Notes under the pieces: generated by a model
What the model was told of the DNA's origin: nothing
Database searches by the model: none
What the model saw: only the letters and a program-made list of their open reading frames with translations
Assembly (NCBI RefSeq): GCF_024298765.1
Contig: NZ_CP101210.1
Reading direction: 5' to 3' (one strand)
Length of the DNA stretch: 64,000 nt
Source: Escherichia coli
GTDB lineage: Bacteria; Pseudomonadota; Gammaproteobacteria; Enterobacterales; Enterobacteriaceae
Position numbers and translations under genes: made by a program
Shown here: in pieces, positions 21,581-23,450 of the stretch
How the letters are laid out: each line of letters opens with the position of its first letter
Numbering within the stretch: the first letter of the stretch is position 1

Positions 21581-21789
21581 CCAGGGATAATCGGGCAAAC
21601 AGGCGCATGGAGGCGATTTCGTACAGGGCATCTTCCATGGCACCGTCGCTCAGGTTGTACCAATGCTGCATGCAGTGAATACGCAGCATGGTCTCCAGCG
21701 GATAGGGCCGTCGGCCATTGCCCGCCTTGGGATAAAACGGCTCGATGACAGCGGTCATATTCTGCCATGGCAGAATCTGCTCCATGCGG
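21581..21789 (-). mobile_element. Internal ~209-bp fragment of IS5, no IS5 ends
   Basis: Identical to IS5 positions ~10650-10858 of the complete copy (InsH codons ~28-95); bounded by the IS2 end on one side and a type I hsdM remnant on the other. Confidence 0.85.
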
Positions 21790-22641
21790 AGTGTGGGCGT
21801 AAAATTGTCTCCGGGCATGATAGTCGTAACTATGCATTGTTCGGTCAGGAAGCGATCGGTTCTACGTGGTCGCTGGCGAAAATGAATATGTTCCTGCACG
21901 GGGAAGACAACCATAAAATCGAGTGGGGCGATACCATTCGTAACCCGAAGCTGCTCGATAAAAATGGCGACCTGATGCTGTTTGATATCGTGACCGCTAA
22001 CCCACCGTTCAGCCTCGATAAGTGGGGCCATGACGAGGCCGAGAACGATAAGTTTGGCCGTTTTCGTCGCGGTGTACCGCCGAAGACTAAAGGAGATTAC
22101 GCTTTTATCTCGCATATGATCGAAACCCTGAAACCGGGAACTGGCCGTATGGGCGTAGTTGTGCCACACGGTGTGCTTTTCCGTGGCTCCAGCGAAGGCA
22201 AAATTCGCCAGAAACTGATCGACGAAAATTTGCTGGATGCGGTAATTGGTCTGCCGGAGAAATTGTTCTACGGGGATTCCTGCAGCAATTCTGATTTTTA
22301 AAAAGCAGAAAGTGGATGATAAGGTGCTGTTTATCGACGCCAGCCGCGAATTCAAGGCGGGTAAAAACCAGAACCAGCTCAGTGAAGAAAACATCGAAAA
22401 AATCGTTAAGACCTACCGCAATGGCGATAACGTCGAGAAATACGCTTATCTTGCCAGCCTGAAAGAGATTCAGGACAACGACTATAACCTCAATATCCCG
22501 CGCTATGTCGATACCTTTGAAGAAGAGGATGAGATTGACCTGCTGGCGGTGCGAGCAGAACGCGAGCAACTGAAGGCGGAATTGGCGAAGCTGGAAACGG
22601 AGATGGCTGGATATTTGAAGGAGTTGGGTTATGGCTCGTGA
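21790..22641 (+). pseudogene. Remnant of a second type I R-M methyltransferase gene (hsdM), 5'-truncated and frameshifted; different family from the intact type IC hsdM
   Basis: Frames 21663..22301 and 22246..22641 together encode [22 protein letters not shown]...VTANPPFS...[37 protein letters not shown]...LPEKLFY / [12 protein letters not shown]...DNDYNLNIPRYVD; frame switch near 22270; no N-terminal third. Confidence 0.8.
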
Positions 22642-22925
22642 TTCGCTTTACCCAGTGAGCGTTAAAGCTGGAAAACCGATCCTTGGAATGCTACCTACAG
22701 GATGGCAAAAGTTATCATTAGAAAAGTGCTTAAATATAGAGGCAAGAAAGGCATATATACAAGATAATCAAGAGTATGACTTAGTTACAGTAAAGCGCTC
22801 CAGAGGTGGCGTAATAAGACGTGAGCATCTTAAAGGAAAAGATATCTCCGTAAAAAGTCAATTCTATATTAAAGAAGGCGACTTTCTCATATCAAAACGA
22901 CAAATTGTGCACGGTGCAAACCAGT
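22631..22925 (+). pseudogene. N-terminal fragment of the cognate hsdS (start of first target-recognition domain), truncated by an IS3-family fragment
   Basis: Start overlaps the hsdM-remnant stop; ~95 HsdS-like codons (MARDSLYPVSVKAGKPILGMLPTGWQKLSLEKCL...) then the frame runs into IS sequence. Confidence 0.6.
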
Positions 22926-23450
22926 GGGCTGGGCCATGTCGTTCTCGCCGGACAGCAGGCTCACCATGAAAGCACTGGAAATGGTATGGGAAACCCGTGG
23001 TAAGCCCGTCGGGGTGATGTTCCACAGCGATCAAGGCAGTCATTATACGAGCAGGCAGTTCCGGCAGTTACTGTGGAGATACCGGATCAGGCAGAGTATG
23101 AGTCGGCGTGGAAACTGCTGGGATAACAGCCCAATGGAGCGCTTCTTCAGGAGTCTGAAGAACGAATGGGTGCCGGCGACGGGCTATGTAAGCTTCAGCG
23201 ATGCAGCTCACGCAATAACGGACTATATCGTTGGATATTACAGCGCACTAAGACCGCACGAATATAATGGTGGGTTACCACCAAACGAATCGGAAAATCG
23301 ATACTGGAAAAAACTCTAACTCGGTGGCCAGTTTTTGTTGACCACTTCACTAAGACCGCACGAATATAATGGTGGGTTACCGCCAAACGAATCAGAAAAC
23401 CGATACTGGAAAAACTCTAACGCGGTGGCCAGTTTTTGTTGACCACTTCA
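22926..23450 (+). mobile_element. 3'-terminal fragment of an IS3-family element (IS911-like terminal repeat), carrying the OrfB C-terminus
   Basis: OrfB-like C-terminus ...[49 protein letters not shown]...[13 protein letters not shown]; terminal sequence tggccagtttttgttgaccacttca (reverse complement TGAAGTGG...) typical of IS3-family IRs. Exact IS name is from memory. Confidence 0.6.
23248..23450 (+). repeat. Tandem direct duplication (~102 + 101 bp, ~93% identical) of the terminal segment of the IS3-family element, including its outward-facing terminal repeat
   Basis: Units 23248-23349 and 23350-23450 both start ctaagaccgcacgaatataatggtgggttacc and end ggtggccagtttttgttgaccacttca. Confidence 0.85.

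Follow-up and report, generated by a model that had tools for sequence, protein, structure and literature searches.

Relic of a second type I restriction-modification operon in an Escherichia coli defence island: probable origin from a pKP048-like cluster and stepwise decay

The stretch of 64,000 nucleotides from the Escherichia coli contig NZ_CP101210.1 (assembly GCF_024298765.1) that was analysed here, hereafter the window, carries an intact type IC restriction-modification system and, from position 21581 onwards, the pieces of a second type I locus, namely parts of an hsdM and an hsdS gene (hsdM' and hsdS') lodged between two insertion sequence (IS) fragments and followed by a pair of genes encoding DUF262 proteins. 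These pieces are very probably the dead remnant of a second type I operon that originated from a gene cluster like the one on the Klebsiella pneumoniae plasmid pKP048 and decayed in steps. The layout of the relic and of the adjoining pair, based on an open reading frame listing, the sequence itself, a Pfam domain search and alignments, is as follows.

21581..21789, minus strand: internal fragment of ISKpn26 (IS5 family), 209 bp; identity to a complete copy and a Pfam DUF772 match
21790..22641, plus strand: hsdM' pseudogene, gene nucleotides 668-1524 of 1524; Pfam and pKP048 alignment
22631..22917, plus strand: hsdS', codons 1-95 of 424, covering some of the N-terminal target recognition domain; pKP048 alignment
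ending at 22969, plus strand: 112-amino-acid hsdS'-ISEc52 fusion open reading frame, annotated as the hypothetical protein WP_000090302.1
22918..23349, plus strand: 3' fragment of ISEc52 (IS911-like, IS3 family) including the right end; rve, rve_3 and rve_2 domains
23348..23450, plus strand: repeat of the terminal 103 bp of ISEc52, in the allelic variant found in pKP048 and NT1W25
23464..24918, plus strand: first DUF262 gene, intact, GmrSD_N (DUF262) and DUF7834; Pfam, WP_000443938.1
24911..26953, plus strand: second DUF262 gene, intact, GmrSD_N and GmrSD_C (DUF262 and DUF1524); Pfam

A sequence-only reading of the window had already described a relic enclosed by an IS5-family internal fragment and an IS3-family fragment. 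All the elements that it named were found where it had placed them, to within a few bases, the two fragments being ISKpn26 (21581-21789) and ISEc52 (from 22918).

The hsdM' pseudogene aligns with the pKP048 hsdM from gene nucleotide 668 onwards, so that the 3' 56% of the gene is kept and 222 of the 507 codons (44%) are missing; the N-terminal truncation recognised earlier is real, although it is larger than the one third then estimated. Both frames of hsdM' are still matched by Pfam N6_Mtase (E=6e-47 and 1e-25) and the NPPF motif is still present, while the HsdM_N domain and the S-adenosylmethionine (AdoMet) motif DPACGSGSLL (residues 212-221, motif I) were lost with the 5' part. The frameshift, also noticed earlier, is the loss of one unit from a TACGG-TACGG tandem repeat (gene nucleotides 1147-1151, codon 383), a 5-bp deletion at about window position 22268/9. 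The hsdS' piece comprises 287 nucleotides that are 100% identical to nucleotides 1-287 of the pKP048 hsdS, in agreement with the approximately 95 codons counted before, and a Pfam search of the 112-amino-acid open reading frame that contains it gave no Methylase_S match.

The components expected of a functional type I system were sought individually. The complete fold of an AdoMet-dependent N6-adenine methyltransferase, with N-terminal domain, motif I and motif IV in a single reading frame, is lacking, HsdM_N and motif I being lost and the remainder frameshifted; a complete HsdS, having both target recognition domains as well as the conserved helical regions, is lacking, with 95 of 424 codons left; and the sole hsdR in the neighbourhood belongs to the type IC system, its product being 26% identical to the HsdR of the progenitor, so that a cognate HsdR is lacking as well. 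Since hsdM is without its N-terminal domain and motif I and is frameshifted at codon 383, hsdS stops after 95 codons, short of even one target recognition domain, and the yecA-like gene, hsdR and the YgjP-like peptidase gene that complete the pKP048 operon are all gone, the relic would appear to have no enzymatic function, and an HsdM' that lacks motif I is not expected to bind AdoMet.

The frameshift could in principle be a sequencing or assembly error at a locus that encodes a working methyltransferase, as the two hsdM reading frames are divided by no more than one indel. This explanation has practically no chance of being right. The indel is not a homopolymer miscount but the loss of a 5-bp repeat unit; the deleted allele occurs in 67 of 5,426 complete E. 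coli genomes (the set to which all junction and allele counts given here refer), which were assembled independently, and 23 other genomes have an undeleted, intact version of this hsdM allele at another locus. Correction of the frame would, moreover, leave the gene without its 222 N-terminal codons including motif I. Sequencing error was therefore rejected as a candidate, and with it the possibility, raised in the sequence-only reading as the finding that would overturn it, that correction of the frameshift would recover an intact gene.

The closest intact counterpart of the relic, together with the same DUF262 pair downstream, exists on plasmids of the pKP048 type in Klebsiella, as the sequence-only reading had proposed to check by BLAST. 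The hsdM'-hsdS' DNA matches approximately 350 Klebsiella conjugative plasmids at 97.6%, and also a chromosomal cluster in the leuZ-yecA island of E. coli. In pKP048 (a K. pneumoniae IncFII plasmid, NC_014312, cluster at 130.5-148.3 kb) the order is hsdM (507 amino acids), hsdS (424 amino acids), a yecA-like UPF0149/SEC-C gene, hsdR (1094 amino acids) and a YgjP-like metallopeptidase gene, followed 3' of the peptidase gene by IS debris that includes an ISEc52 tail, by the same DUF262 pair and then by Hhe. The window matches this plasmid in two blocks with equal gene order and orientation. The first, 21790-22917, holds the 3' part of hsdM and the 5' part of hsdS and is 97.6% identical, rising to 100% outside one divergent patch; the second, 23348-26968, holds the ISEc52 tail and the DUF262 pair, is 99.7% identical and runs up to the start of an IS1. 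The first DUF262 protein has the same accession, WP_000443938.1, in both. The two differ in that the plasmid cluster is intact, whereas the window lacks hsdM nucleotides 1-667, hsdS from codon 96 on, the yecA-like, hsdR and YgjP-like genes and Hhe, and carries the 5-bp deletion. The earlier interpretation of the locus as the relic of an ancestral cluster that combined a type I system with a GmrSD-like pair is thus borne out by pKP048, which has both in the same order.

Intermediate stages are preserved in E. coli chromosomes. Strains Ecol_244 (NZ_CP019020) and NT1W25 (NZ_CP075477) share with the window the hsdS/ISEc52 junction, the 5-bp deletion, the DUF262 pair and a type IC neighbour, and differ from it by a full-length hsdM, a complete ISKpn26 or IS5, the presence of Hhe and a type IC system that is directly adjacent. 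Their order is type IC hsdMSR, complete ISKpn26 or IS5, a 193-bp leader, full-length hsdM, hsdS', truncated ISEc52, DUF262 pair and Hhe. In NT1W25 the 5-bp deletion is the sole lesion of hsdM, which differs from the window copy by one nucleotide; in Ecol_244 an internal stop is recorded by RefSeq besides the frameshift. The right junction (hsdS/ISEc52) is found in 67 genomes, as is the 5-bp-deleted allele, and the left junction (ISKpn26/hsdM) in 62; as Ecol_244 and NT1W25 keep the full-length hsdM, the right junction and the 5-bp deletion must predate the left junction.

The chromosomal cluster of the leuZ-yecA island (for example in NCTC9041, O145 RM9872 and CP53) belongs to the same type I family and has the layout hsdM, hsdS, yecA-like gene, hsdR and M48 peptidase gene. 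It differs in its chromosomal site and in what follows, a hypothetical gene and one 623-amino-acid DUF262 gene, ISEc52, the DUF262 pair and Hhe not being found downstream. Since the downstream gene of this cluster is a different one, the downstream half of the relic is of the plasmid type. Some of these loci have themselves been damaged: in CP53 (locus L007, 13324-17893) an IS903B removes hsdS through the peptidase gene, and in O145 RM9872 (locus L005, 11534-21957) IS3-family copies truncate hsdM and split the peptidase gene, an extra cold-shock-domain gene lying between the yecA-like gene and hsdR.

Several observations weigh against a straightforward descent from the pKP048 cluster. The hsdM allele to which the relic belongs differs from that of pKP048 at 41-47 positions, which fall in two patches (gene nucleotides 210-297 and 1137-1335), while the intact hsdM of CP53 is the relic allele save for one substitution and the 5-bp deletion. 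As the hsdM allele is of the CP53 type but the downstream half is of the plasmid type, the true progenitor would appear to be a mosaic without a representative among the sequenced plasmids. Moreover, no E. coli chromosome was found to hold the cluster in undeleted form at this island, and the hsdS/ISEc52 junction was found on no plasmid of PLSDB (72,556 records). Outside the two patches the pKP048 and CP53/relic hsdM are identical, a pattern resembling a mosaic produced by gene conversion; the second patch corresponds to window 22259-22457, with the 5-bp deletion at its left edge.

The same combination of alleles, a chromosomal leuZ-yecA type hsdM with a plasmid-type DUF262 pair and Hhe, in an island full of rearranged IS copies, could mean that the hsdM'-hsdS' and ISEc52-DUF262 pieces never formed one cluster and are unlinked loci joined by IS-mediated recombination. 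Such an origin is very unlikely, as the two parts lie on plasmids of the pKP048 type at a distance of about 6.3 kb, in equal order and orientation, the leader of hsdM and the N-terminal domain of hsdS are those of pKP048, and the junction lies inside ISEc52 without an IS terminus, as befits the product of a deletion rather than of IS-mediated joining. Descent from a single cluster followed by deletion is the preferred reading.

The structure of the IS fragments bears on how the relic was formed. The ISKpn26 fragment is 100% identical to window 10650-10858, which lies inside a complete copy at 9808-11003; both IS ends are absent, 145 bp are gone on the hsdM side and, judged as an IS5-family element with terminal inverted repeats and a DDE transposase gene, it falls short, with most of the transposase gene absent. 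The ISEc52 fragment represents IS positions ~819-1249 (431 bp) at 98% identity to the annotated ISEc52 of the K. variicola plasmid p1_020019, which was used as the reference. It does not qualify as an IS3-family element with two terminal repeats and an orfA-orfB pair with programmed frameshift either, as the first 818 bp are absent and what remains is the C-terminal rve part of orfB and the right end. In p1_020019 the same DUF262 pair is immediately preceded by a complete ISEc52.

At both junctions that formed the relic, an internal IS position is joined bluntly to an internal gene position, and a search for microhomology at the two junctions found none. The left junction corresponds to a deletion of 1,005 bp, made up of 145 bp of the ISKpn26 end, the 193-bp leader and 667 bp of hsdM. 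A transposition event would have left IS termini at the points of joining. Because these junctions are blunt and lie inside the IS elements, not at their termini, they are best explained as plain deletions, probably simple illegitimate ones in both cases, and the IS fragments would be casualties of ordinary deletions rather than demonstrable agents. Genuine IS events did take place in the surroundings, namely an IS2 insertion, the replacement of Hhe by IS1, IS100 and IS903B insertions in relatives, and an ISKpn26 whose flanks do not match. The earlier statement that the locus was dismantled by IS activity therefore holds for later events such as those of IS2 and IS1, and not for the two defining lesions.

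The left side of the relic records some of these later events. The IS2 end directly adjoins the ISKpn26 fragment at 21581. In strain cq9 the IS2 lies within the truncated ISKpn26 and is flanked by a 5-bp target duplication that corresponds to window 10650-10654; the same strain has an additional IS100 insertion inside hsdS'. The far flank of the IS2 in the window is a Gp2-family pseudogene, which shows that a later rearrangement took place. In Ecol_244 the ISKpn26 that lies between the type IC hsdR and the second type I locus (at ~5867-7062 of locus L013) has unmatched 4-bp flanks, TTAG on the left and CTAA on the right. These suggest that recombination between two IS copies, and not a simple insertion, brought in the plasmid-type segment. 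The CTAA site is unbroken in pKP048, 193 bp upstream of hsdM. Eight base pairs after the complete ISKpn26 that had been considered as a retained piece of the original flank were rejected as a chance extension of the alignment.

From these comparisons the following history may be proposed. A cluster as on pKP048, with hsdM, hsdS, the yecA-like gene, hsdR and the YgjP-like gene followed by ISEc52, the DUF262 pair and Hhe, would have become linked, by way of an ISKpn26 copy, to the thrW-proA island in an E. coli lineage that already had a type IC system at this place; a plasmid is the probable source. The order of the events that followed is recorded in extant genomes. The first step, common to all 67 carriers, comprised a deletion of more than 6 kb from hsdS codon 96 to the middle of ISEc52 and the 5-bp slippage deletion in hsdM. 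The 1,005-bp deletion that took the last 145 bp of ISKpn26, the leader and the 667 bp of hsdM, seen in 62 genomes, was the second step, and the insertion of IS2 into the truncated ISKpn26 the third. In the sub-lineage of the window, IS-associated rearrangements finally placed the type IC system about 12 kb away, with IS1 replacing Hhe. The Gp2 flank, the ISKpn26 beside the type IC hsdR, the intervening genes and the IS1 of the window are products of such later IS-associated rearrangements.

Two tandem copies of the terminal 103 bp of ISEc52 lie in the window (23246-23349 and 23348-23450), the two tails being 95% identical and differing by four substitutions and one indel. The first variant matches CUPF09 and the second pKP048, p1_020019 and NT1W25, each of which has one copy of the tail. 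By match span and piece count in one search with this region, both tails occur only in 2020CK-00188 and EM20-18-50, the two full-length matches of that search. The double tail may have arisen by insertion of a second ISEc52 at 103 bp from the end of its predecessor and subsequent recombination.

The DUF262 pair is the part of the cluster that is presumably still under selection. GmrSD_N is found in both proteins, GmrSD_C only in the second and DUF7834 in the first; the PADLOC models HEC-06, Orf5 and SspE match chiefly within the DUF262 region at the N-terminus, apart from one short SspE match close to the C-terminal end of the second protein. A GmrSD-like type IV system would combine the NTPase-like DUF262 domain with the His-Me nuclease domain DUF1524 and cleave modified DNA, and such an activity of the pair is putative. 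Literature searches on the Hhe/DUF262 plasmid cluster, as on the PADLOC candidate PDC-S12 (see below), returned nothing specific. In all contexts encountered, on plasmids as on chromosomes, 14-17 bp separate the right end of ISEc52 from the start of the first DUF262 gene (window 23450-23467; locus L008, 2931-2948; pKP048, locus L006, 12877-12894), and the pair is consequently without an upstream region of its own. A promoter and terminator scan of 21400-23600 gave nothing above the shuffled expectation and no sigma-70-like site above chance.

This arrangement, with the pair starting 14 bp after the ISEc52 end and co-oriented with hsdM'/hsdS', and the conservation of the fusion open reading frame, which is annotated as a protein in many genomes, would suit a relic that has been co-opted, the 112-amino-acid fusion or HsdM' tuning the type IC system or the stretch serving as a transcribed leader of the DUF262 genes. 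Co-option is nevertheless highly improbable. The carrier genomes are near-identical (99.5-100%), which makes the conservation uninformative; the two type I systems are 31% (M) and 26% (R) identical, within the inter-family range, and interchange of subunits is not expected; S' has no recognisable Methylase_S domain; no promoter-like signal rises above chance; and relatives tolerate the IS100 insertion inside hsdS'. It is extremely doubtful that the relic is non-inert in any such form, be it the fusion or HsdM' as a decoy or modulator, or the stretch as a means of transcribing the promoter-less pair. The reading of the stretch as a dead remnant is retained.

The remaining features that bear on the locus are these.

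3790..9807, plus strand: type IC hsdM-hsdS-hsdR, intact, context outside the relic; EcoR124II M score and EcoR124_C
9808..11003, minus strand: complete ISKpn26 adjoining the type IC hsdR, the same element type as the 21581-21789 fragment
20250..21580, minus strand: complete IS2 (IS3 family, 1331 bp), terminal repeats readable at both ends
26968..27736, plus strand: IS1, at the place of the Hhe gene; comparison with pKP048, NT1W25, Ecol_244 and cq9

The type IC HsdM scores 1150 bits against the EcoR124II M subunit and the HsdR carries the EcoR124_C domain. In the less rearranged relatives this system lies directly alongside, with only ISKpn26 or IS5 between, and it belongs to the island and not to the plasmid-type cluster. 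The type IC system is accordingly to be left out of the ancestral immigration-control cluster suggested in the sequence-only reading. In the window approximately 9-10.5 kb with lactate-utilisation genes lie between the type IC system and the relic (11004-20249), comprising a gluconate permease fragment, lutCBA-like genes, dld, an L-lactate permease gene, an IS1 and a frameshifted Gp2-family gene. Downstream of the IS1 that replaces Hhe, 27111-33500 holds the plasmid stabilisation gene stbA, an AAA ATPase gene of 2.9 kb and a gene for a TPR protein, which add to the plasmid-like or defence-like cargo of the island. Window 21400-23500 is 100% identical to E. coli 2020CK-00188, in which the island is bounded by an Ag43 adhesin gene and tRNA-Thr/proA.

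The relic is a case of ordinary pseudogene decay in a defence island, and its pieces are already flagged by RefSeq as a frameshifted, incomplete N-6 DNA methylase and partial transposases. Its value is that of a worked example, as extant genomes keep the successive stages of dismantling in an unusually complete series, from the intact plasmid cluster through the full-length frameshifted hsdM to the truncated relic and the further IS insertions. The series shows that the restriction-modification module disappeared and that the GmrSD-like pair next to it remained intact, the decisive lesions being plain deletions and not transposition events. A by-product is the recognition of the progenitor as a widespread type I family that lies, by sequence, outside the classical families IA to ID. 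It is present in approximately 450 of the 5,426 complete E. coli genomes and on the approximately 350 Klebsiella plasmids, and a yecA-like gene with UPF0149 and SEC-C domains lies between hsdS and hsdR in each progenitor locus examined. The yecA-like gene matches PDC-S12 (E=1.9e-98), and a YgjP-like metallopeptidase gene follows hsdR; the two genes are at 7262-7945 and 11279-12034 in the pKP048 locus (L006) and are also present in loci L003 and L005. NCBIfam and PADLOC give only generic type I names for the progenitor, and a description of its type I family was not found in literature searches.

The assignment to a family was examined by comparing the progenitor with one representative of each of the types IA to ID. 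Type I families were classically defined by subunit complementation and antibody cross-reactivity (PMC3874165, PMC2481252); identities between families are 25-33% for M and 17-26% for R and exceed 90% within a family (PMC2481252). The criterion used here was an identity of HsdM and HsdR of about 90% or more to the family prototypes. The O157 Sakai system taken for type IB shares 99% identity with the type IB enzyme EcoAO83I, which in turn is 98-99% identical to EcoAI (PMC2481252), and the R subunit of EcoMII of EC958, taken for type ID, is 92% identical to that of StySBLI (PMC4659465). The progenitor HsdM and HsdR are 26% and 24% identical, respectively, to those of EcoKI of K-12 (type IA), 28% and 24% to those of the O157 Sakai system, with no EcoEI_R_C domain, 31% and 26% to those of the type IC system of the window (3790-9807), and 31% and 31% to those of EcoMII. 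At 24-31% identity, each of the four assignments was rejected against its representative, and the progenitor would thus belong, as far as sequence can tell, to none of the families IA to ID. The relic is accordingly of a family different from the type IC system of the window, as had been proposed, while none of the candidates then offered (IA, IB or ID) fits. The hsdM of the type IE system KpnBI is 2631 bp long against 1524 bp in the progenitor, which would speak against membership of that family.

Compared with the systems of types IA to ID, the progenitor has the same subunit plan and the same Pfam domains (N6_Mtase, HsdM_N, HSDR_N and SWI2_SNF2), and it shares with types IC and ID the gene order hsdM-hsdS-hsdR. 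It differs from them in its identities of 26-31% for M and 24-31% for R, the level that separates those families from each other, in an HsdR without the C-terminal domains EcoR124_C, EcoEI_R_C and T1RH-like_C, and in an operon that contains an embedded yecA-like gene.

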